A stretch of 13,375 bases of DNA from a virus (lineage: Duplodnaviria; Heunggongvirae; Uroviricota; Caudoviricetes). Of the stretch, positions 1 to 13,375 are shown piece by piece. The DNA is taken from IMG/VR virus record IMGVR_UViG_2563366977_000006. One strand, given 5' to 3'. A program made the translations under genes and the position numbers. Position 1 is the first letter of the stretch. Each line of letters starts with the position of its first letter. Under the pieces are notes generated by a model that made no database searches, had not been told where the DNA came from, and saw only the letters and a program-made list of their open reading frames with translations.

Positions 1-1215
1 GTGAAACTCAATGCCCGTCAAATAGACACTGCCAAGCCAAAAGAGAAGGCTTACAAGCTGGCTGATGGTGGTGGTCTGTATCTCTTGGTAAAACCTAGTG
101 GAGGAAAATATTGGCGCTTCAAGTATCGTGTAGCTGGTAAAGAGAAGCTGTTAGCACTAGGTGTGTATCCTGAAGTTACCTTGGCTGATGCTCGTGCAAA
201 ACGTGAAGAAGCTAAAAGGGGTATCGCTGGGGGTATCGATCCGATGGAAGCGAAACGAGAGGAAAAGATTGCCCGGGAAACGCAGTTAAACAACACCTTC
301 AAAGATATTGCCCTTGAGTGGCACTGCAGCAAATTAAAAAAATGGTCTGCTGGTTATGCTTCAGACATCCTCGAAGCCTTCAACAAAGATGTGTTCCCTT
401 ACATTGGCAAAAAACCAATCGCCGAAATCAAACCACTTGAACTGCTGAATGTGCTGCGGCGCATCGAGGGGCGCGGTGCTACCGAAAAAGCCAAAAAAGT
501 GAGGCAGCGATGCGGGGAAGTTTTCCGCTATGCAATTGTCACTGGACGTGCTGAGTATAACCCTGCACCGGATCTCACCAGCGCGATGCAAGGTCATGAA
601 TCTAATCATTATCCTTTCCTCACAGCCAAAGAATTACCTGATTTTTTCAAGGCATTGTCCAGTTACTCAGGAAGTGCATTGGTTGTAATGGCGGCTCGTC
701 TACTGATTATCACCGGTTTGCGGACTGGCGAACTGCGCGGTGCATTATGGGATGAAATCGATCTCAACAAGGCTATCTGGGAGATACCTGCTTCACGGAT
801 GAAAATGCGTCGCCCTCATGTGGTGCCTTTGTCTAAGCAGGCTCTTTCGCTTATTGGGCAGATTAAAGAATTAACTGGCAATTATCCGCTTATGTTTCCC
901 GGCCGTAATGATCCAAGGAAAACAATGAGCGAGGCTAGCATAAACCAAGTATTTAAACGCATCGGCTATAACGGAAAGGTTACTGGTCATGGATTCCGGC
1001 ACACCATGAGCACCATTTTGCATGAGCAGGGCTATAACACCGCGTGGATAGAGACACAGCTCGCACACGTCGATAAAAACTCAATTCGTGGCACATACAA
1101 CCATGCGCAATATCTGGATGGCAGACGCGAAATGCTCCAGTGGTATGCCGACTATATGGATTCGCTCGAGCATGGCGGAAATGTGGTGCATGGTGAGTTC
1201 GGAAAATGCGGGTGA
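1..1215 (+). CDS. int: P4-family tyrosine integrase (site-specific recombinase), 404 aa as drawn
   Basis: ORF 1..1215. N-terminus MKLNARQIDTAKPKEKAYKLADGGGLYLLVKPSGGKYWRFKY is the characteristic P4-type integrase N-terminal region. Catalytic signature present: TGLRTGELR, HGFRHT (H-x-x-R), RGTYNHAQY (Tyr). The ORF begins with GTG at base 1, so the true start may lie upstream of the window. Confidence 0.9.
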   Translation: MKLNARQIDTAKPKEKAYKLADGGGLYLLVKPSGGKYWRFKYRVAGKEKLLALGVYPEVTLADARAKREEAKRGIAGGIDPMEAKREEKIARETQLNNTFKDIALEWHCSKLKKWSAGYASDILEAFNKDVFPYIGKKPIAEIKPLELLNVLRRIEGRGATEKAKKVRQRCGEVFRYAIVTGRAEYNPAPDLTSAMQGHESNHYPFLTAKELPDFFKALSSYSGSALVVMAARLLIITGLRTGELRGALWDEIDLNKAIWEIPASRMKMRRPHVVPLSKQALSLIGQIKELTGNYPLMFPGRNDPRKTMSEASINQVFKRIGYNGKVTGHGFRHTMSTILHEQGYNTAWIETQLAHVDKNSIRGTYNHAQYLDGRREMLQWYADYMDSLEHGGNVVHGEFGKCG

Positions 1216-1343
1216 CTGGTTGAGTATACAGTAGTAGACTTTGAGCGATTAAGAAAAGGCTGTGTCTAGGGTCGCTCCTGAAAACTCGTACACCTCTGCG
1301 GGCTGGCACAGCCACTTTTACAGAGGGTGCGAGGTAGCACAGA

Positions 1344-2099
1344 GTGACTTACAATTCAAAAAGCTGTAGTTCTCTTGAAAAGGCATATTACACTCCAATT
1401 GAAGCGGCGCTACGTTGGTGTAATTTAATTGCTCATGAAGTTTTAATATTGGAGCGAGTGGGAGATGGAGTTTTACCTAGCGTTGGAATGTTCCCTCAAT
1501 GGCCTTGCTTGCGTGTTAATGCTGAGAAAATTTTAGATGCAATCCATAATTGTGAAATTCCTTATGGTCGTGATGGTAAAACTGTTCAACCTGGAGAACA
1601 GGTTGCTAAGCACCGTTTAACCGTCCGTCATTCCGATCTGAAATCATGGATGTCAAAAAACTATCCCAACCAAAAACCAGCTTTCCTTTTTGATGCTGTT
1701 GAGCAGCAGTTACATGCTGGAATTACAGTCGAGGCATATCAAACTCTTCAGGCTGAAAACAAACGTCTTAATATTCGCTTAGATAATGCTATGAAGACTT
1801 TCCAACAGCAGAAAAATGAAATTTCCGAATTACAAGGGGAACGTGATTCACTACGACGAATGGTTGATAACTCCGTGCAAAACATTGACCAACGTTCTGA
1901 AACAACATATTTAAACATTATTGGAGGGTTGCTTTTTCTAATGTTAGGGCGTTCACCTGCTGGTATTAAGCAATCTGTATTCGAAAATCAAAGCTCTATT
2001 ATTAGTAATTTATTGGGGCATTTTGAAGGTAAGCCGGGGATGAGTTCAAGAACGCTGGAAGCAAAGTTTGCTGAAGCTAATAAATCAATTAAATCGTAG
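1344..2099 (+). CDS. hypothetical protein (251 aa) with predicted coiled-coil segment; no family recognised
   Basis: Six-frame ORF with GTG start at 1344 and GAGGT 8 nt upstream; internal ATG alternatives exist. Visibly lower G+C than int. Heptad-like stretch EAYQTLQAENKRLNIRLDNAMKTFQQQKNEISELQGERDSLRRM. Sits between int and alpA on the same strand. Confidence 0.5.
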   Translation: MTYNSKSCSSLEKAYYTPIEAALRWCNLIAHEVLILERVGDGVLPSVGMFPQWPCLRVNAEKILDAIHNCEIPYGRDGKTVQPGEQVAKHRLTVRHSDLKSWMSKNYPNQKPAFLFDAVEQQLHAGITVEAYQTLQAENKRLNIRLDNAMKTFQQQKNEISELQGERDSLRRMVDNSVQNIDQRSETTYLNIIGGLLFLMLGRSPAGIKQSVFENQSSIISNLLGHFEGKPGMSSRTLEAKFAEANKSIKS

Positions 2100-2110
2100 T
2101 TGTATTCCTA

Positions 2111-2145
2111 TACCGCAATTGCGGTATCATTCTCCGCAATTGCGG
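2111..2145. promoter_or_regulatory. two copies of a palindrome (TACCGCAATTGCGGTA at 2111-2126; CCGCAATTGCGG at 2134-2145) upstream of alpA; candidate operator or attenuator
   Basis: Read directly from the sequence: perfect 16-bp and 12-bp palindromes sharing the core CCGCAATTGCGG, lying between the stop of the upstream ORF (2099) and the alpA start (2214). Confidence 0.35.
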
Positions 2146-2213
2146 TGATATCCAATGTCTTACCTGCTTCAATGTCTCCCGTAGGCATCAATAAACAACG
2201 GGAGACGATTATC

Positions 2214-2411
2214 ATGTCACAATCTTTAATTCGTATGCCAGAAACCATGCGCCGTACAGGGTATGGAAGGGCATGGATCTATAAACTAATTGCCCAAGGG
2301 CGTTTTCCTAAACCTGTAAAAATTGGCTCGCGAGCGATTGCTTTCGTTGAGAGTGAAATTGACGAGTGGATTAATCAGCGTATTGCGGAATCACGCGGAA
2401 CAGCTACCTGA
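2214..2411 (+). CDS. alpA: AlpA-family (prophage CP4-57 regulatory protein type) small HTH transcriptional regulator, 65 aa
   Basis: ATG at 2214 with GGAG 9 nt upstream. Protein MSQSLIRMPETMRRTGYGRAWIYKLIAQGRFPKPVKIGSRAIAFVESEIDEWINQR matches the AlpA pattern (LIRLPEV..TG.S...IY.LI..G.FPKP.K.G.RA..W.ESEI..WI). The ORF-track version (2100..2411) has an extended N-terminus I consider unlikely. Confidence 0.85.
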   Translation: MSQSLIRMPETMRRTGYGRAWIYKLIAQGRFPKPVKIGSRAIAFVESEIDEWINQRIAESRGTAT

Positions 2412-2423
2412 TTAAATGGCTAC

Positions 2424-2437
2424 GGGGCTATTGCCCC
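2424..2437 (+). other. GC-rich hairpin GGGGC-TATT-GCCCC just downstream of alpA stop; no U-tract
   Basis: Perfect 5-bp G/C stem with 4-nt loop, 13 nt after the alpA stop. It lacks a T-run, so it is a possible RNA structure or weak terminator rather than a canonical intrinsic terminator. Confidence 0.3.
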
Positions 2438-2488
2438 CAGCTATCCACCAGCAAATAAAAGTAACTTAATTCGATAGCAGGAGTTTTT

Positions 2489-3337
2489 ATGAAATTTCCA
2501 AAAACGCCCGTACAGGGGCAGGGCTTCGTTCGGCCTGAAAACCAGAATCTGCAAAATTTTGGCGAAATTATCCCGGTTATTTCCGGCGTTATTGGCGGGC
2601 GTGAAACCAATATTGTTAGCGCCAGAGCGTTGCATAAGGCGCTCGGGGTAGGCCGTGATTTCACTACCTGGATTAAAGGACGTATTGATGAGTACGGATT
2701 TAAAAATGGCGTGGATTTTGAAATTGTAGAAAATTTGTACTTTGATTCCCCGAAACGGGGGAACCAAAGTGTAAATATTGAACAGTTTGATTCTGATTGG
2801 ACAACAAAGCGCGGCGGTGATCGCCGCAGTGAAGACTATTTGATCTCCACGAACATGGCGAAAGAACTGGCGATGGTCGAACGCACCGAACAAGGCCGCG
2901 CCGTTCGCCAGTATTTCATCAAATGCGAGGAGGAGCTACACAAGGTGGCGCCAGTGCGTTCCGCAGCGTTACGCCGGGAACTGAAAGCCCGTATCACCGT
3001 TGCCAGCTACTTTAAGCCGATGTGCGCTGCGCTGGAGGCGTACCGGGCTGAACTGGGTAAAAACACGTTCCAGCACCACTACACCACGGAAGCCAATATG
3101 CTGGCGCGTATCGTGCTGGGTGGCATGACTGCAAAACAGTGGGCACTGGCGAACGGCATCACAGGCGAACCACGCGACCACATGAGCGTGTTGCAGCTTG
3201 AGCACCTTTCTTACCTTGAGCAGAGCAATATCACGCTGATTGAGTTAGGCCAGGACTACCACCAGCGAAAAGCTGAATTAATTCGTCTTTCGCAGCGTTG
3301 GTTAGCCCGTCGCATGGAGGAAAACAGCCATGTGTAA
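2489..3337 (+). CDS. phage antirepressor-like protein (AntA/AntB-type N-terminal domain), 282 aa
   Basis: ATG at 2489 with AGGAG 5 nt upstream. N-terminal motif SARALHKALGVGRDFTTWIKGRIDEYGF resembles the antirepressor-type pattern (..R.LH..L.V...F..W...RI..Y.F). C-terminal half is helical and of unknown family. Assignment is by memory of the motif, not a search. Confidence 0.6.
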   Translation: MKFPKTPVQGQGFVRPENQNLQNFGEIIPVISGVIGGRETNIVSARALHKALGVGRDFTTWIKGRIDEYGFKNGVDFEIVENLYFDSPKRGNQSVNIEQFDSDWTTKRGGDRRSEDYLISTNMAKELAMVERTEQGRAVRQYFIKCEEELHKVAPVRSAALRRELKARITVASYFKPMCAALEAYRAELGKNTFQHHYTTEANMLARIVLGGMTAKQWALANGITGEPRDHMSVLQLEHLSYLEQSNITLIELGQDYHQRKAELIRLSQRWLARRMEENSHV

Positions 3338-4009
3338 CGCTCTGACCGTTACAAAAAGAGAAAGCGCCCCGTTGCCGGAGCGCCTTTGTGAACGAATAGC
3401 CTACTGCGCCATATTGCTTACTGTCTACGAGGCAGATTATAGCGTTGTGGTTGCACAGAGTGAAGGCGTTGATCACCGTTACCACAGCACACCAGAAATG
3501 CAGAATATTTTGCTGCAAAATGTCGTTGGTCACGCTGTCCGGAAAGCAAAAAATTTTGCTGGTGGCGCGACTGATGCGATTTTGTCAGGTCGCCAGGTGC
3601 TGATCAATCTGATGTCTGATTTCGTTCTGGATAAAACAAAGGCGACCGCAGAGGGCCACCAGTGGGAAAGCTACACACTTGAACACATCGCCAACAATGC
3701 CAGATTTGCGGTTGGTGGGCAATGTGATCAGTGTGCTGGCTTGCTGGTGGGCTATTCCTGCTCTTTAACATTGCCATGCCGCGATGTTTTCCAGGTATGC
3801 GACCCCATTTTTGTGCGCCTGTACTCTTTAAGGAATTTCTCAAGGATAAACGCACAGGGCGCGAATCTGTCTGACCCATGCTCGTACGCTATCTTTCTGC
3901 GCTGTCTTTTCCGTGCCGGTGATGGTGTATTGGTTGATTCTTTGTTGGTCATGGCGCTGCCCTGTAAAACGATGCACCGTAGTTCCTTACACCACGGCGC
4001 TGGTGATGG
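3330..4009 (+). CDS. possible translationally coupled gene with unresolved 3' end (possible decayed gene); frame stays open to 4886
   Basis: ATG at 3330 overlaps the upstream stop (cATGTGTAA) and has GGAGG 9 nt upstream, which argues for a real start. The first ~130 codons look protein-like, but later the translation becomes Cys/Ser/Arg-rich and the frame has no stop until 4886, running antisense through the repressor gene and its operators. The end coordinate is arbitrary. Confidence 0.25.
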
Positions 4010-4312
4010 TTACTCCTGTTCTTTGGCCTTGCGGCGCTGGAGTTCTTCACGTGCGACGGTGACGAGCTGCCCGATCTCCTCGACAGCTTTGACTCCGATT
4101 TTTTCCACCTGCGCCAGTGCATTGAGCGAAGAAACCAGGGGATTTTCTCCGCTTCCTTCTGCCTGGCGGCGGGCGATCTCACCACGCATGGCGGTTACTA
4201 TGAATCCGGCGTTGCTTTCGCCGTCCAGTTTTACGGATTCCATACCCTCCATAACATCGTGGGGAACCCTGATCGTTGTCATTTGCGATTTTGCATTTTT
4301 GTATACAGACAT
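4010..4312 (-). CDS. ribbon-helix-helix (Arc/CopG-like) DNA-binding regulator, 100 aa; candidate immunity/maintenance repressor
   Basis: Minus-strand ORF; start ATG at 4312 with GGTGA about 6 nt upstream. N-terminus TTIRVPHDVMEGMESVKLDGESNAGFIVTAMRGEIARRQ fits a beta-strand plus two-helix RHH pattern, followed by a helical/coiled C-terminus. It is divergent from the rightward operon. Confidence 0.7.
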   Translation of the reverse strand: MSVYKNAKSQMTTIRVPHDVMEGMESVKLDGESNAGFIVTAMRGEIARRQAEGSGENPLVSSLNALAQVEKIGVKAVEEIGQLVTVAREELQRRKAKEQE

Positions 4313-4332
4313 AGTTAATCACCAATTAGTTA

Positions 4333-4433
4333 TGTGTATATCACTATACACAAAAGTGAGATATAAAAACACTTGCAATGTATATCACCACAATATAATG
4401 TATATCTCACATTGTGATGGCTATGTATCTCAC
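4333..4433. promoter_or_regulatory. operator-like repeats in the divergent control region (4 copies of ATGTAT(A)TC(T)CAC plus palindromes)
   Basis: Read directly: TGTGTATAtcacTATACACA palindrome 4333-4352; ATGTATATCAC 4378-4388; ATGTATATCTCAC 4398-4410; TCACAtTGTGA palindrome 4406-4416; ATGTATCTCAC 4423-4433. All lie between the RHH gene start (4312) and the first rightward gene (4521). Confidence 0.55.
4373..4399 (+). promoter_or_regulatory. candidate sigma70 promoter for the rightward operon (-35 TTGCAA 4373-4378, 15-nt spacer, -10 TATAAT 4394-4399)
   Basis: Hexamers read by eye. The operator-like repeats overlap the spacer and the -10 element, as expected for a repressible promoter. The spacer is on the short side and there is no experimental support. 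Confidence 0.4.
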
Positions 4434-4520
4434 AATGATCGATTCATAAAAACGACGAAACCCGGCAGTGCGCTAACACTAACCGGGCTTCTAACCAAAC
4501 CGTTAAATGAGGTAACGATT

Positions 4521-4886
4521 ATGGCTGGGGCACAGCATACCCAAACTCACCCTAAATTTATATACACCTTCCTGGCGGTGCACCGTAATTGCATAGCTGA
4601 CGGTAAAAACACTGTTCATGTAGCCGCCGATACGCTGGTTGATGCCTGCGAGATGCTCAATGACATGGGCTATATCTCGGCAACATGGAAAGGGCGCGAA
4701 GAAAACACGCTGTTTATTCAGAAATGCGAAAACAATTTTATCTGGCGTTTTATCGCCCTGAGCACAGCACAACCGCGTGTAATTCACATCGAGGCCACCA
4801 GCGAACAGGAAGCACGCCAGCAATCTCCTGATGGCTGCGTGATGGTATTCGCCGCCCGTATTCGCCAGGAGGTGGAACATGTGTAA
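4521..4886 (+). CDS. hypothetical protein, 121 aa (first gene of rightward operon)
   Basis: ATG at 4521 with TGAGGT ending 8 nt upstream; in-frame part of the long ORF-track ORF 3330..4886. Stop overlaps the next start (ATGTGTAA). Confidence 0.65.
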   Translation: MAGAQHTQTHPKFIYTFLAVHRNCIADGKNTVHVAADTLVDACEMLNDMGYISATWKGREENTLFIQKCENNFIWRFIALSTAQPRVIHIEATSEQEARQQSPDGCVMVFAARIRQEVEHV

Positions 4887-5103
4887 TGCAACATGGCCTG
4901 ATGCAGCGGTAGACGCTATCAAAACGCTGGTGGATTCACTTATTGAGATTTCTGCTATCTCTGGTGTGGCGCATAAACACGCAGCCAGAGAATCAGAATG
5001 CATCTTCCATTATTTAGCATTTGTGCAGCTAAAAGCCGATCAGGCACTGGATAAGGCCGGAAAAATTATCATGGCTGATGTGCAGGAGGTGCACCATGCA
5101 TAA
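4879..5103 (+). CDS. hypothetical small acidic protein, 74 aa
   Basis: ATG 4879 with AGGAGG 7 nt upstream; start overlaps the upstream stop. C-terminus ...DVQEVHHA and the junction CCATGCATAA to the next gene are repeated at 5675-5687. Confidence 0.6.
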   Translation: MCNATWPDAAVDAIKTLVDSLIEISAISGVAHKHAARESECIFHYLAFVQLKADQALDKAGKIIMADVQEVHHA

Positions 5104-5461
5104 CCTGTCAATTTCTGACCTTAACAGCATTCAGTTTGACGAGAAATTTACCGGGCAGCTACTGGTCAATGTGGAGAATGGACGCGTGGTAAGTAATTAT
5201 CACCTGCCGGATGGTGCAATTGCCGGAAGCGTTGAAGCATTGCTGGAGCTGGCAGAACGTGCGCGACTGATTAAGCCGTTAACGTGCCATCACGATGATA
5301 ATCTGCATTTTACCGGACGCATGGTGAGTCACTACGAAAACGGCGTTGAAGTATCCTGCGAACGTCTGCGTGATGATTGCTGTTTCGGCACATTGCCGGA
5401 ATTTATCGAATTGCTGACCAGTTGCGGTTATCAGGTCATTCAGGGGGGTAAACATGCGTGA
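5096..5461 (+). CDS. hypothetical protein, 121 aa, containing two tandem copies of an FTG-x-LV...G-x-V-S motif domain
   Basis: ATG 5096 (MHNLSIS) with AGGAGG 7 nt upstream; overlaps the upstream stop. Internal repeat: KFTGQLLVNVENGRVVSNY and HFTGRMVSHYENGVEVSCE ... PEFIELL. Confidence 0.65.
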   Translation: MHNLSISDLNSIQFDEKFTGQLLVNVENGRVVSNYHLPDGAIAGSVEALLELAERARLIKPLTCHHDDNLHFTGRMVSHYENGVEVSCERLRDDCCFGTLPEFIELLTSCGYQVIQGGKHA

Positions 5462-5687
5462 TGATCGTTTTAATTCCCTGAAACAGGAGTTTGATGGCGC
5501 ACCGGAAGATACATCGGGCGCATTGTTGAACGTTGCTGACATGATGAAAGCTGCATATTTTCTTATCAATACCAATGGCTACAAGTCAGAGGGTGAAATG
5601 ATTCTTAGTATTGCGTCGGACTATGCGGAATATGTGGCAGAGGTGCGTTACAGAAGAAAATTCACGGAGGATGTAAGCCATGCATAA
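5454..5687 (+). CDS. hypothetical small acidic protein, 77 aa
   Basis: ATG 5454 with GGGGGG 6 nt upstream; start overlaps the upstream stop (ATGCGTGA). Ends ...EDVSHA, paralleling the end of the 4879 gene. Confidence 0.6.
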   Translation: MRDDRFNSLKQEFDGAPEDTSGALLNVADMMKAAYFLINTNGYKSEGEMILSIASDYAEYVAEVRYRRKFTEDVSHA

Positions 5688-5880
5688 TCATGAAGCGCAT
5701 GTACCCGTAGTGCTTAATGTGCCAGATGATTTCACCGGACGCGTACTGGTTTACCTGGATAAAGGGAAAGTGAAATCACAACGCCGACTGAAAAGTAATG
5801 AAATTGTGGGTTCTCCTGAGTTTTTTTCTGAACTCTGTATTCGTGCAGAAATAAAACCGGAACTGCTGACAGGAAAATAA
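5680..5880 (+). CDS. hypothetical protein, 66 aa, single copy of the FTG-motif domain (paralog of 5096..5461)
   Basis: ATG 5680 (MHNHEAH) with GGAGG 9 nt upstream; 8-nt overlap ATGCATAA with the upstream gene. DFTGRVLVYLDKGKVKSQRRL ... GSPEFFSELCIRAEIKP aligns with both repeats of the 5096 protein. Confidence 0.6.
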   Translation: MHNHEAHVPVVLNVPDDFTGRVLVYLDKGKVKSQRRLKSNEIVGSPEFFSELCIRAEIKPELLTGK

Positions 5881-5884
5881 AACC

Positions 5885-6175
5885 ATGAAAAAGAAAAATT
5901 CTGGCTTTACTGCCAGCGGTCTCTCTCGGCCTGAAATCAGACACGGAGATATTTACCGCGACACCATACGTGGGGGACGAGCGGTTATTTGTCACGTTAC
6001 GCCAGGAAATATCACCTACCGCCGTGAGGCTTATGAATATGACTGCATAATGCCGCGCCGTCAGTTTGAGCGTGATTTTATTCTGGTGGAGAACAAACAA
6101 CAGGAAGCGACGAGACGTGCAGCCATGAATATTAAAAAAATCCGGGCAATGTTGGTTGCGGGAGGTAAGAAGTGA
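5885..6175 (+). CDS. hypothetical basic protein, 96 aa
   Basis: ATG 5885 with AGGA about 10 nt upstream. Its stop overlaps the GTG start of the primase gene (GTGA). Confidence 0.55.
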   Translation: MKKKNSGFTASGLSRPEIRHGDIYRDTIRGGRAVICHVTPGNITYRREAYEYDCIMPRRQFERDFILVENKQQEATRRAAMNIKKIRAMLVAGGKK

Positions 6176-7977
6176 AAAACGCACCGAGTCTAAAATATCA
6201 GCCGAAGGATAAATTCACTGAGGTAATCATTTTTGCCGGGACGGATGCTTACGCCCATGCTCAACACTGGATTGAAAGTGAAGGACGAAAACACGGCGAT
6301 AACGTGCCTCCTGTTTACCTGGGGCCAAAGCAACTGGCAGACCTGGCGAATATCCGCATTATTGATGAGAAACGCCGTTTTGCGCGTGTCTATATCGCGG
6401 GGGAGATAGAGCCAATCCAGATCAATACTATCGCTGAAAAGCTGGCGCTGGCTGGCGTACAGGAGGCGAAATTATACAAAGGTATCACCGACCAGGAACC
6501 GGAGAACTGGCGCGACTACCTGCAACGGATCCGCGAACAGGCTGAGCACGGGGAAGTTTCAGTGATGAAATTAGCTACAAAAAATAGTGGTCTACCCAAG
6601 CCTGCATTAAATCAGATGGGAGCCAGCCAGAGAGGAGAAGTGTTACTTGAACATTATGGAGGAGCACTGGCGATAAATGATGATTCTGATGTAGTTCACC
6701 ATTACAACGGAATTGTTTGGGAGCCTGTATCTGATAAGGAACTCCAGCGGTCTATGGCGAAGATTTTTATTGATGCCGAAATTAGTTATTCGCAAAACGC
6801 CATTAAATTTGCCGTAGAGACAATGAAATTGAGTCTACCTGTTATGGGGGGAGCGGACAGAAATCTTATTGGGTTCAGTAACGGTGTTTTTGATATCAGG
6901 ACAGGAAATTTTCGGGAACACAACAAAAATGACTGGTTGTTAAATGCCAGTGAATTACCGTTCAGCCCGCCAGAAGAGGGGGAAACGCTGGCAACACATG
7001 CGCCGAATTTCTGGAAGTGGTTGCGTCGTTCGGTGGCGGATAATGCTCGTAAAGCGGATCGCGTACTGGCGGCATTATTCATGGTACTGGCGAACCGGTA
7101 CGACTGGCAGTTATTCCTTGAGGTAACGGGGCCGGGCGGAAGCGGTAAAAGTGTGATGGCGGAGATTTGTACCATGCTGGCGGGTAAGGCCAATACAGTA
7201 TCGGCGAGCATGAAGGCGCTGGAAGACGCGAGGGAACGAGCGTTAGTGGTGGGATATTCTCTGATTATCATGCCTGACATGACCCGCTACGCAGGTGATG
7301 GTGCTGGGATTAAGGCCATTACAGGCGGTGACAAGGTGGCTATCGATCCGAAACACAAAGCGCCCTATTCCACGCGCGTTCCTGCGGTAGTGCTGGCAGT
7401 AAACAATAATGCCATGTCATTCAGCGACCGTAGTGGGGGGATCTCGCGTCGACGAGTGATATTTAATTTCTCTGAGGTTGTACCAGAGAACGAACGCGAT
7501 CCGATGCTGGCGAAAAAGATAGAAGGGGAACTGGCCGTAGTGATTCGCCATTTGCTTACACGATTTGCCGACCAGGACGAAGCGAAAAGACTACTTTATG
7601 AGCAGCAAAAATCAGAAGAAGCACTGTTAATAAAGCGTGAAGGTGATTCGCTGGTGGACTTCTGCGGTTATCTGATGTCGTTGGTTAAATGTGAGGGGAT
7701 GATAGTAGGTAATGCAGAAATAGTGCCATTTAGCCCGAGGCGATATCTGTATCATGCTTATTTGGCTTATATGTCTGCGCATGGTCTGGGAAAACCGGTA
7801 TCACTGACACGCTTTGGTACAGATATGCCAGGGGCAATGGCTGAGTACGGAAAGGAGTACAAGCGGGCTAAATGCACTAAAGGTCCAGATAAAGGGCGAA
7901 CGATCACAAATGTTCTGTTAGATAAAGATGCTGATGGATGGTTACCAGCAGCGGCAGGCATTAACGACAGAACATGA
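6172..7977 (+). CDS. P4 alpha-like / PICI pri-rep-like replication protein (primase C-terminal region plus SF3-type P-loop helicase), 601 aa
   Basis: GTG 6172 with GGAGG 6 nt upstream. Walker A motif VTGPGGSGKSV, followed by a hydrophobic-acidic stretch LVVGYSLIIMPDM (Walker B-like). Size and position immediately upstream of an iteron origin match satellite/phage-plasmid primase-helicases. Family call is by motif and context only. Confidence 0.8.
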   Translation: MKNAPSLKYQPKDKFTEVIIFAGTDAYAHAQHWIESEGRKHGDNVPPVYLGPKQLADLANIRIIDEKRRFARVYIAGEIEPIQINTIAEKLALAGVQEAKLYKGITDQEPENWRDYLQRIREQAEHGEVSVMKLATKNSGLPKPALNQMGASQRGEVLLEHYGGALAINDDSDVVHHYNGIVWEPVSDKELQRSMAKIFIDAEISYSQNAIKFAVETMKLSLPVMGGADRNLIGFSNGVFDIRTGNFREHNKNDWLLNASELPFSPPEEGETLATHAPNFWKWLRRSVADNARKADRVLAALFMVLANRYDWQLFLEVTGPGGSGKSVMAEICTMLAGKANTVSASMKALEDARERALVVGYSLIIMPDMTRYAGDGAGIKAITGGDKVAIDPKHKAPYSTRVPAVVLAVNNNAMSFSDRSGGISRRRVIFNFSEVVPENERDPMLAKKIEGELAVVIRHLLTRFADQDEAKRLLYEQQKSEEALLIKREGDSLVDFCGYLMSLVKCEGMIVGNAEIVPFSPRRYLYHAYLAYMSAHGLGKPVSLTRFGTDMPGAMAEYGKEYKRAKCTKGPDKGRTITNVLLDKDADGWLPAAAGINDRT

Positions 7978-8011
7978 TACGAAATTTATAAGTTGAAACT
8001 TAAAAGTAGAC

Positions 8012-8340
8012 GGTTGGTAGACAGATACACTTAACCCTCTACCAACCATCTACTAATTAATATTTTGAATTATATAGGTATTTTTAATGTGGTAGAGAGG
8101 TGGACATTTTATTTTATATTTCTAAACCACGGGGGTATCTAAAAATAGATAGTTATGGGTTCATTTTTAAAATTTTTCTTTTAACTATCTACACTGTCTA
8201 CCATTTAGTAAAAATCATTAATTATCAATGTATTAATACGGTAGAGAGTTGGTAGACAGTTTGCAGATTGTTTTTTGTTATGTGTGAACAACATTAAATA
8301 AATCAATCAATTATATCGATAGACAGTTGGTAGACAGTTG
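8012..8340. repeat. putative iteron-type origin of replication: about 7 copies of GGTAGA(C/G)AG in both orientations within an AT-rich region
   Basis: Read directly: GGTTGGTAGACAG 8012-8024; inverted CTCTACCAACC 8037-8047; GGTAGAGAGG 8091-8100; inverted CTGTCTACC 8194-8202; GGTAGAGAGTTGGTAGACAG 8240-8259; ATAGACAGTTGGTAGACAGTTG 8319-8340. Inverted repeat TAGATAGTT (8146-8154) / AACTATCTA (8182-8190) flanks a very AT-rich stretch that could act as an unwinding element. Confidence 0.6.
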
Positions 8341-8345
8341 TAACG

Positions 8346-8888
8346 ATGGGGCAAAGCATGACTAAGCTGACCATTAACAGAAAACCAAAAGGCATTTACG
8401 GCACGCCGCAGAAAACGACGCAGGCGGCGCAAGAGCAGGATAAAACCACATCGGCGCATAAAGTGATGCCCGGTAACCAGAAAGCGCAGCAGAAGCCCAT
8501 AGGGGCGACACCGTGGCGGCATATGACCAAGCGCCAGCGCAAAAACCTCAGGCGCATTAACCGCCTCACTGAGTTGTGGCCTGAATTATTCAGCCGGGAA
8601 GCACCGAAGCCGCTTAAGGTGGGGATATTCGACGACCTGATGCAGGATCTCGCCGTCAGGGGGCTGGCATTCGGGCCAGGGGCATTGCGTGCGACGCTGG
8701 CATCTTATGCGCAGTGTCCGCGCTATTACCGCGCCTTAATGGCTGGTGGGGTACGCTACGACCTGAAATGCCAGCCGTGCGGCGAGGTGACACCACAGGA
8801 ACAACAGGACGCAGAAACGCGGCTGGTTGCGCTGAATGAGAAACGCAAACGTCAGCGTCGGGCAGCAAAGGAGAAAACAGGCGCATGA
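8346..8888 (+). CDS. FinO/ProQ-domain RNA-binding protein with basic N-terminal extension, 180 aa
   Basis: The segment LTELWPELFSREAPKPLKVGIFDDLMQDLA...LRATLASYAQCPRYYRALMAGGVRYDLKCQPCGEVTPQEQQDAETRL parallels the ProQ N-terminal FinO domain (LAERFPHCF...RPLKIGIFQDL...LRSALRLYTSSWRYL...RVDLDGNPCGEL). A second in-frame ATG at 8358 is an alternative start. Confidence 0.75.
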   Translation: MGQSMTKLTINRKPKGIYGTPQKTTQAAQEQDKTTSAHKVMPGNQKAQQKPIGATPWRHMTKRQRKNLRRINRLTELWPELFSREAPKPLKVGIFDDLMQDLAVRGLAFGPGALRATLASYAQCPRYYRALMAGGVRYDLKCQPCGEVTPQEQQDAETRLVALNEKRKRQRRAAKEKTGA

Positions 8889-9172
8889 TTCACGACAGCA
8901 AAGCGGAAGCTCTGGAAGCGCGTGGTCTGTACCGGAGAGCGGCGGCGCGGTGGGCTGAGGTCATCATGCTGGCGAATGATGACAAGGCACGGGAACAGGC
9001 GGCAAAACGTCGCGCGGAATGTATCCACAAGGCAGCACGCCCACCAGCAAGGCAGGATAATTTCGGGGAGATGCGCAAAACCATCAGCCGGGCACATGCC
9101 GGGATGGGATTACATCAGCCCAATGGTGAGGCATTCAGGAAATACCAAAAAAAGAACAATTGTAGTCATTAA
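8885..9172 (+). CDS. PerC-like transcriptional regulator, 95 aa
   Basis: ATG 8885 overlaps the upstream stop (ATGA), with AAGGAG 11 nt upstream. N-terminus MIHDSKAEALEARGLYRRAAARWAEVIM resembles PerC-family proteins as I remember them; not verified by search. Confidence 0.55.
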   Translation: MIHDSKAEALEARGLYRRAAARWAEVIMLANDDKAREQAAKRRAECIHKAARPPARQDNFGEMRKTISRAHAGMGLHQPNGEAFRKYQKKNNCSH

Positions 9173-13195: not shown

Positions 13196-13375
13196 ATGAC
13201 CATCACCGAAGCCGATATGCTGGAGATGATCCGCAGCATTGCCGGAATCAAACAACCAGCAAGCAAAATTAACAGGTGTTCAGCGCCTGTTTCCGTTGTG
13301 CTGCAACAGGAACGCCACCAGCAGGATGATGTAAGGCCGTATCAGTGGAAGAAACCGGACAGGCCGCGACGGTGA
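13196..13375 (+). CDS. possible small ORF (59 aa) at window edge, unknown function
   Basis: ATG 13196 with AGGA 7 nt upstream; ORF-track version starts at 13169. G+C returns to about 53% (hand count 13201-13260). No motif recognised; could be a chance ORF. Confidence 0.3.
   Translation: MTITEADMLEMIRSIAGIKQPASKINRCSAPVSVVLQQERHQQDDVRPYQWKKPDRPRR

Follow-up and report, generated by a model that had tools for sequence, protein, structure and literature searches.

The first 8340 bases of the DNA stretch analyzed here (13,375 bp, hereafter the window; IMG/VR virus record IMGVR_UViG_2563366977_000006) constitute, with a probability that we put at about 85%, the backbone for integration, regulation and replication of a 16.07-kb phage-inducible chromosomal island (PICI) residing in the thrW gene of Escherichia coli SCU-104. 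The window is 100% identical to positions 4,092,731-4,106,105, minus strand, of the SCU-104 chromosome (NZ_CP053284.1). A preliminary description made from the window's letters had listed an integrase gene, an AlpA-type regulator, an antirepressor-like gene, a divergent region, a replication protein and an iteron origin in this order, and we found all of them at roughly the places given there, together with two parts that the list had omitted, a 251-aa open reading frame (ORF) and an int-alpA RNA motif (Table 1). Its satellite or PICI reading also held, in that layout, replication protein, integrase and attachment (att) site match those of two characterized PICIs, EcCICFT073 and EcCIMP1. The island is a further member of the well-studied Gram-negative PICI family, and no new biology is required to account for it.

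The boundaries of the island were placed on either side of the window. In locus L001, which consists of the window plus 15-kb flanks (a window position is the L001 position minus 15,000), the RefSeq order is proA, thrW (tRNA-Thr), the window genes, a DUF4747 gene and its partner, a yagP-like LysR pseudogene and paoDCBA. thrW lies directly upstream of the window at L001 14,759-14,834, ARAGORN detected no tRNA within the window itself, and the right island junction precedes yagP/paoD. When the two flanks were joined and used as a query, the corresponding empty site, with proA-thrW abutting the LysR pseudogene, was found in 386 E. coli genomes, and the junctions were defined by a three-way alignment of one such site (L002) with both island junctions. 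The attB sequence reads ...TCCTATTATCGGCACCATT|AAAATC..., attL reads ...TCCTATTATCGGCACCATT|CTAACG... and attR reads ...GTTCCTATTATC----CCATT|AAAATC..., so that the island is bounded on both sides by a direct but imperfect repeat, TCCTATTATC[GGCA]CCATT, of the 3′ end of the tRNA. The 10-nt repeat TCCTATTATC begins at L001 14,818 and again at 30,887, a spacing of 16,069 bp; the attL copy is inside thrW, 173-182 bp before window base 1, and the attR copy is at about window 15,887-15,896, 2.5 kb beyond the window end. A search with the 25-nt tRNA 3′ end allowing up to three mismatches returned only the tRNA itself, and because of the 4-nt gap attR is detectable solely by the empty-site alignment. 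The tRNA gene, attL core and downstream repeat that the preliminary description had proposed looking for are accordingly in place, and the element is larger than the 8340 bases assigned to it there, its left end lying some 170 bp ahead of window base 1 and its right end near window 15,900. Six copies of the motif TGGGGGTA are present in the 43-kb locus, against 0.75 expected, and five of these lie beside the island ends, three in the interval from attL to int and two immediately inside attR. Integrase arm-type sites show this pattern, and the copies would presumably have that role.

The features by which Fillol-Salom et al. (2018) recognize a PICI were found together in this island: an integrase, a specific chromosomal att site and flanking direct repeats; alpA downstream of int and mostly rightward transcription; a Pri-Rep protein followed by a two-set iteron origin around an AT-rich region; and a size near 15 kb, with no structural or lysis gene found across the island by Pfam, PHROG or tblastn with the late genes of three relatives. 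Twenty-one of the 25 tabulated island genes are on the plus strand, and the exceptions include a small leftward pair that EcCICFT073 also has. For a further feature, an att site that prophages never occupy, the states of thrW covered here were the empty site and occupancy by this island or by EcCIMP1. EcCICFT073, the PICI of E. coli CFT073 (Fillol-Salom et al., 2018, PMC6092414; 2019, PMC6739421; here locus L005), has the same order of genes, and from alpA onward also the same orientation: int, alpA, a leftward hypothetical gene and YlcI/YnfO gene, an Icd-like gene, four small ORFs, a DUF4222 gene, rep and perC. Its origin likewise lies directly after rep, its Rep has the same primase-less N-domain, and the antisense RNA described below is shared. 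EcCICFT073 differs in its integrase (25% identical) and its insertion between roxA and phoQ, in lacking antA and the 251-aa ORF, and in possessing capsid, decoration and RppA genes and a lambda-type cos, none of which was found in the SCU-104 island. After the origin the two elements diverge, in that ProQ/FinO, lipoprotein and unknown genes follow it in the SCU-104 island, unlike in EcCICFT073.

EcCIMP1 shares the other end of the backbone. This PICI of E. coli MP1, whose helper is Kapi1, occupies, according to Pick et al. (2025, PMC11773190), a tRNA-Thr site with proA on one side and yagU on the other and is flanked by the same TCCTATTATC repeats; that paper also reports that circular forms were detected only with Kapi1 present, that Kapi1 transduces EcCIMP1 specifically, and that excision and transfer need int and alpA. 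In our comparison EcCIMP1 (L003) resembles the SCU-104 island in its thrW site, Int (96% identity), AlpA (76%), AntA (59%) and PerC (49%), and also has DUF4222 and Icd-like genes. It differs in carrying an unrelated replication protein of 918 aa with TOPRIM and DUF927 domains, P22-like ejection-protein genes that were not found in the SCU-104 island, and, upstream of icd, isrK and C4 RNAs where the SCU-104 island has its antisense RNA; it is also longer (19.96 kb vs 16.07 kb). The SCU-104 island, as judged from these comparisons, is a mosaic that combines an integrase and att module of the EcCIMP1 type with a control region, a replication operon and an origin of the EcCICFT073 type. A third relative, the capsid-forming PICI (cf-PICI) vB_KppS-Ant (LR881103), has the same antisense RNA upstream of its operon and a closely related Rep, and differs from the SCU-104 island by encoding its own terminase, capsid, portal and connectors; homologues of its terminase, capsid and portal were not found here.

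The proteins at the left end of the backbone fit this picture. Profile searches of the integrase and AlpA, which had been suggested as checks, returned the domains of P4-family integrases and a Phage_AlpA match (Table 1). AlpA, which is 34% identical to the EcCICFT073 protein, is the presumed master activator of the island by analogy with EcCICFT073, in which AlpA is a helper-induced, self-activating activator and not a repressor (PMC6092414).

The replication protein, Rep, also links the island to known satellites. It comprises a degenerate Toprim-like N-domain (residues ~1-130), D5_N, a superfamily 3 (SF3) helicase and, for origin binding, a winged-helix domain of the P4-alpha type. Across its full length Rep shares 43% identity with EcCICFT073 Pri-Rep (E = 2e-174), and it is 73% identical over 99% of its length to the protein of vB_KppS-Ant, which has the same N-domain. 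Residues 146-592 are 49% identical to residues 327-769 of P4 alpha (E = 1e-154), and residues 491-592 match the solved alpha origin-binding domain (PDB 1ka8, E = 1e-18). Rep groups with the satellite proteins of PICIs, cf-PICIs and P4 (alpha), not with conjugative-plasmid or chromosomal primases, a grouping that the preliminary description would have counted against its reading.

The same description had called this protein a primase-helicase. The helicase is there, whereas neither a Zn ribbon nor a recognizable primase catalytic domain was found in Rep. The Zn-ribbon and Toprim primase half of P4 alpha is replaced by a degenerate Toprim-like domain of 130 aa, and the marks of a DnaG/P4-alpha-type primase (Zn ribbon plus Toprim, catalytic Glu, DxD) were not found. 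In a by-eye alignment to the EGYATA and DRD motifs of P4, the catalytic Glu position is occupied by Ala22 (IIFAG), with Ala at this position in at least 90% of 22 homologues, and the DxD position is a variable residue (E, D, N, S or V). An hhalign comparison of the N-domain profile with the P4 alpha Toprim segment was not significant (probability 0.14), and because there is no such sequence-level support the Toprim homology is argued from fold and domain position. The N-domain is probably a degenerate Toprim remnant and inactive. We also observed that this domain (window 6172-6560, residues 1-130) is joined elsewhere to three kinds of ATPase module, D5_N/SF3, DUF927-type and AAA_25, in fusions found in other enterobacterial proteins (P0004, P0007 and P0015), which suggests that it is a swappable module.

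Immediately beyond the rep stop codon lies the origin, in which the iterons, often 11 bp apart, lie on both sides of a core whose G+C content is 20-27%. Of ten GGTAGAS matches across the window, seven fall within 8016-8335; 1.3 matches would be expected window-wide, and none of 200 shuffles reached ten. The iterons of EcCICFT073 also directly follow rep and have the same core (GGTAGAC/GGTAGAT), as in CTGTCTACC, GGTAGACAG and GGTAGATAG, and its rep-ori segment, when cloned, drives plasmid replication (PMC6092414). The post-rep iterons of vB_KppS-Ant (L006 11718-11951) are instead TGTTCACC, identical to the type-1 origin repeats of P4. The Rep proteins are 73% identical yet their iterons differ (GGTAGAC vs TGTTCACC), which means that a single Rep family has changed its iteron specificity. 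A separate observation concerns a 15-nt string, GGGGGTATCTAAAAA, in the AT-rich core (window 8131-8145), which matches the attR-proximal arm-site region GGGGGTATCTATAAA (L001 30818-30832); the match may be chance, or may reflect a link between integrase binding and the origin.

Between the integration genes and the replication operon, a divergent intergenic region (4313-4520) separates the leftward YlcI/YnfO gene from the rightward operon. The preliminary description had placed a divergent repressor/operator switch here. The divergent region and its repeats stood up to analysis: five operator-like repeats lie in it, whereas only 0.38 would be expected in the whole window, and none of 200 shuffles reached five. 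The repressor of that switch would have to be the YlcI/YnfO protein, which we regard as an unproven candidate with a possible ribbon-helix-helix fold; phmmer against PDB sequences gave no match for it. This protein probably binds the five repeats. To assume that a protein repressor runs the switch is nevertheless imprecise: in the characterized relatives AlpA acts as an activator, and a master repressor is not known (PMC6092414). A scan for the sigma-70 consensus found 8 promoter-like sites, below the 14.5 found in shuffles, and none in the divergent region, so that it did not serve to locate promoters. The YlcI/YnfO protein is 58% identical to its EcCICFT073 counterpart, and the second protein of the leftward unit, a 66-aa hypothetical, is 65% identical to the product of the EcCICFT073 gene in the same position.

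At the head of the replication operon, on the opposite strand, we found a candidate cis-antisense RNA of two hairpins, the second of which is a terminator. The RNA lies across both the Shine-Dalgarno sequence and the start codon (ATG 4521) of the operon's first gene, with the complement of the GAGG Shine-Dalgarno in the loop of the first hairpin. Its conservation is extensive. A box, GGGCNTCTNACC, occurs at the same spot 1-2 kb upstream of rep (7 kb in two cases) in most of the 34 related loci that were fetched by their Rep protein, and the 32 distinct sequences in the alignment fit two hairpins, the second G+C-rich and followed by a T-rich tail. Compensatory changes affect 13 of the 23 pairs, against 4.7 in shuffles, paired cells amount to 96.9% against 88.0% in shuffles, and none of 500 shuffles reached the observed value on any of the five measures; sliding the partners lowered pairing to 36-47%. 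The RNA was assigned to the minus strand because G-U cells far outnumber A-C cells (108 vs 2), pairing being 96.9% on the minus strand and 82.4% on the plus strand. Folding compared with shuffles agrees, with z = -3.7 for the minus strand of the window and -5.05 at the same position of EcCICFT073, against -1.0 and -2.4, respectively, for the plus strand.

A covariance model built from the alignment scored 104 bits in the window, 69.7 in EcCICFT073 and 94 in vB_KppS-Ant, and it also scored 100 and 93 bits in two loci that had not been used for training; all matches are antisense to rep, and none was found in P4, EcCIMP1 or a P4-like Erwinia locus. Elsewhere the RNA maps to L005 8764-8870, L006 9283-9387, L016 8197-8300 and L029 8300-8403. 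Two Pectobacterium loci each have two copies, ~4.6-4.9 kb apart, upstream of a single rep (L018 3792-3895 and 8364-8468; L026 2932-3035 and 7811-7915), and these pairs could be tandem or nested control modules. The alignment thus shows the structure and, through its G-U cells, the strand, and the RNA would, from its placement, mask the ribosome-binding site and start codon of its target.

The arrangement recalls SymR/SymE, in which the 5′ hairpin of a ~80-nt cis-antisense RNA covers the target's ribosome-binding site and start codon and a terminator hairpin follows; unlike in that system, the target here is the Icd-like protein that heads the replication operon rather than SymE. Rfam returned a full-length SymR (RF01809) match on the minus strand at 4454-4526 (E = 9e-4), which at 35.9 bits is far below the family's gathering score of 61, and no Rfam family covers the RNA. 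Our literature search found no paper describing it. The box upstream of the RNA always fits TAnnnT. A -35 element was considered and cannot be argued, and the promoter is unproven, because these bases are at the same time the codons of a conserved peptide, HTQTHPKF, which could itself account for their conservation. An immunity RNA of the C4/isrK type, which might be expected by analogy with P1, P4 and EcCIMP1, was not found in the window (Rfam, E ≤ 1). In EcCIMP1 the isrK and C4 antisense RNA genes (L003 24600-24827) score above the Rfam threshold and lie directly upstream of the Icd-like gene, which is the P1/P4-type arrangement for RNA immunity; we noticed no mention of them in the consulted sections of PMC11773190.

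Taken with what is known of the relatives, these parts lead us to propose the following course of events. The P4-family integrase would hold the island between its imperfect repeats, with arm-type sites on both sides. By analogy with EcCICFT073 and EcCIMP1, a helper phage would turn on alpA, and AlpA would activate its own promoter and the lytic genes of the island, leading to excision. The divergent region and the RNA beside it (4313-4544) are predicted to add negative control, by YlcI/YnfO protein on the five operator-like repeats and by the antisense RNA over the first gene of the icd-like-to-rep operon. Rep would then bind the GGTAGAC iterons through its winged-helix domain and open the AT-rich core with its SF3 helicase, and priming would need to be supplied by the host or the helper because Rep has no Zn ribbon and, according to the alignment, no intact Toprim active site. 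The island would be expected to be packaged into helper particles, for which a single weak candidate for a determinant was found. We also entertain a bolder version of this scheme, which we rate as somewhat more doubtful than probable: the antisense RNA (85-105 nt) would be the missing negative regulator of Gram-negative PICIs and cf-PICIs, perhaps together with YlcI/YnfO and its five operators, silencing the toxic Icd-like protein and Rep until helper-induced, AlpA-driven transcription outruns it, and Pri-Rep proteins would be primase-dead helicases that borrow a host or helper primase.

Kinship with P4 runs through part of this backbone, and the island might be taken for a P4-like satellite in the strict sense, one that depends on P2 and has lost or replaced its late genes. 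Like P4, it has a P4-family integrase (43% identical to P4 Int) that inserts into a tRNA gene, an AlpA with 41% identity to P4 Vis, an SF3 helicase of the alpha type with the winged-helix origin-binding domain, and an origin of short iterons. These shared parts are set against the rest of the P4 repertoire. tblastn with P4 sid, delta, psu, epsilon, cII, gop, beta, orf106 and orf151 found nothing in the Escherichia ruysiae copy of the island (L008), which represented the island in that database in place of the SCU-104 locus itself, and the SCU-104 proteins matched no P4 late-gene or epsilon family in Pfam and PHROG scans. Neither a sid-delta-psu operon with epsilon nor a P2-type cos with a CI/C4-type RNA was found, the cos having been sought with the P2/P4 cohesive-end 19-mer at up to three mismatches. 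The primase part of alpha was not found in Rep, and the iterons are GGTAGAC instead of the TGTTCACC of P4. SatelliteFinder defines a P4-like element by seven core components, of which at least five are required (PMC10085698); of these (int, alpA, epsilon, alpha, sid, delta and psu) the island has three, and one of the three, alpha, only as its helicase and origin-binding two-thirds. The layout, in contrast, matches EcCICFT073 gene for gene. We therefore give scarcely any credence to a strict P4-like element, a reading that these results have already largely refuted; the preliminary description had judged the element to be not P4 itself but a related satellite lineage, and that lineage can now be named as the PICIs.

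An identification as a PICI must also be weighed against the chance that the island is an immobile remnant, a decaying cryptic element in the thrW hotspot whose genes still look satellite-like although the capacity for excision, replication and packaging is gone. Several results pull away from a working PICI. Packaging determinants were not recognized: lambda cosN (a 12-nt query, up to two mismatches) gave no hit inside the island, its count being at chance level, the P2/P4 cos was not found either, and no homologue of capsid, decoration, RppA (c1503), TerS, TerL, portal or EcCIMP1 ejection proteins was found. By our own count from these results, rather than by the tool, the island has three of the five SatelliteFinder PICI core components, at least four being required, and the hijack module of that model, capsid morphogenesis plus TerS (or Rpp/cos), was not found. 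The attR is an imperfect copy of the tRNA end, with its 4-nt gap, and PGAP marks two pseudogenes, antA for an internal stop and the icd-like gene as partial. thrW is much used for insertion, and 2246 of 5426 genomes share pieces of window DNA. Finally, helper, excision, replication and transfer are known for the relatives and would apply to the SCU-104 island by extension; because no packaging or hijack gene was recognized, its helper dependence is suggested by the homology of the backbone. Other signs point to a living element. The pseudogene flags disagree with the uninterrupted ORFs seen in the sequence, and every backbone ORF is open and full length when compared with functional relatives. 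The TCCTATTATC repeat is the proposed att core of the mobile EcCIMP1 in PMC11773190, arm-type sites stand at both ends, and the iterons of the origin are undamaged. Ten E. coli genomes contain 80% or more of the window, and 92 genomes retain the switch and replication module with a coverage of at least 80%. In E. ruysiae (L008), a near-identical copy also adjoins tRNA-Thr(CGT) at thrW, with shared proteins mostly 91-100% identical, and its presence in a second species argues for recent mobility. We consider a dead remnant improbable, if less so than a strict P4-like element, and retain the identification of a PICI backbone.

The main value of this identification is one of annotation, as RefSeq lists the region gene by gene, largely as hypothetical proteins. 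A complete PICI backbone without a recognizable hijack module would probably be missed by marker-based tools that require the module. Experiments could be rewarding above all for the antisense RNA and for the primase-less Rep. The RNA spans EcCICFT073-type PICIs and cf-PICIs across Enterobacterales and is a testable candidate for repression in Gram-negative PICIs, and the label "DNA primase" or "Pri-Rep" appears unfounded for the primase part of this Rep family, which, if true, would make primase-dead Pri-Rep proteins a new point of dependence on the helper or host.

Table 1. Features of the SCU-104 island within the window (window coordinates).
Feature	Position	Strand	Evidence or remark
P4-family tyrosine integrase, 404 aa	1-1215	+	Pfam Arm-DNA-bind_3, Phage_int_M, Phage_integrase
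int-alpA RNA motif, Rfam RF02996	1259-1327	+	cmscan 44.7 bits vs gathering score 35.8, E = 1.2e-6, full-length
251-aa ORF between int and alpA, accessory position	1344-2099	+	No family match
AlpA-family regulator, 65 aa	2214-2411	+	Phage_AlpA 3.4e-19
AntA/AntB-type antirepressor-like protein, 282 aa	2489-3337	+	Pfam AntA 1.3e-23; PHROG anti-repressor families
66-aa conserved hypothetical, second gene of leftward unit	3752-3952	-	Annotated coding sequence
YlcI/YnfO-family protein, 100 aa	4010-4312	-	Candidate ribbon-helix-helix DNA binder, C-terminal coiled coil
Five operator-like repeats TGTATATC(W)CA, i.e. TGTATATCWCA	4335-4434		5 matches within 100 bp
Candidate cis-antisense small RNA, two hairpins, second a terminator	4440-4544	-	Covariation in homologues
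121-aa protein with Icd-like (cell-division inhibitor) domain	4521-4886	+	NCBIfam phage_ICD_like 8e-23, residues 73-116
Four small overlapping ORFs, 74/121/77/66 aa	4879-5880	+	phrog_5146, 340, 2512, 24341 (unknown-function PHROGs)
DUF4222 protein, 96 aa, immediately 5′ of rep	5885-6175	+	Pfam DUF4222 8.5e-18
Rep, replication initiator and helicase, 601 aa	6172-7977	+	Pfam D5_N, DUF5906 (SF3 helicase), Pox_D5
Origin: two GGTAGAC/GGTAGAG iteron sets, both orientations, flanking AT-rich core	8006-8337		Iteron statistics
ProQ/FinO-domain protein and PerC-family regulator	8358-9172	+	Pfam ProQ 1.3e-22, PerC 3.8e-32
174-aa protein, N-terminal helix-turn-helix	11652-12176	+	PHROG terminase small subunit 4e-6, residues 1-42 only

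The two parts that the preliminary description had passed over adjoin one another. The int-alpA RNA motif sits directly after the int stop codon, ahead of the 251-aa ORF, and was not found in the EcCIMP1 or EcCICFT073 loci when searched at E ≤ 1. The 251-aa ORF had no match in Pfam, PHROG, NCBIfam or PADLOC, and none among PDB sequences by phmmer; its only homologue is in the near-identical E. ruysiae copy.

Within the replication operon, the Icd-like protein encoded by the first gene is 74% identical to that of EcCICFT073, and the full-length 121-aa ORF is conserved in L008, L038 (Raoultella) and L027 (Edaphovirga). RefSeq/PGAP renders the gene as an N-terminally truncated fragment (4731-4886), and by eye the full ORF resembles a tandem duplication of an Icd-like unit. 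Two of the four small ORFs that follow have EcCICFT073 counterparts, at 32% and 54% identity, and the DUF4222 protein is 48% identical to the EcCICFT073 protein encoded at the same position.

Directly after the origin, the ProQ/FinO-domain gene (8358-8888) encodes an RNA-chaperone-like protein and runs into the beginning of perC. Among the other fetched loci only L021 had a homologue (48%), and the protein could act on island RNAs. PerC is 49-52% identical to the PerC proteins of EcCIMP1 and EcCICFT073. Farther downstream, the 174-aa protein is the sole candidate for a TerS- or Rpp-like packaging specificity factor, and a weak one: excisionase-like helix-turn-helix models match it nearly as well as the small-terminase PHROG does, and phmmer against PDB sequences gave no match. 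Rpp proteins carry a TerS-like DNA-binding domain (PMC6739421).

The last window ORF (13196-13375, plus strand) resembles the last EcCICFT073 gene, C_RS07030 (L005 16374-16655), at both termini. Overall the two are 27% identical; they have the motifs TEAxxLxxIRxxAGI and Y-WKKP-R-RR in common and differ by a large deletion in the interior, and the ORF may be a conserved attR-proximal gene. At the attR-proximal end of the island, the DUF4747 gene and its 199-aa partner (L001 28708-30200; window 13708-15200) are missing from the otherwise near-identical E. ruysiae copy. PADLOC returned no defense-system match for nine island proteins, this pair included. In strain K56-43-un the annotation of a related island includes a GapS1 family gene, and the DUF4747 region looks like a variable cargo or defense spot.

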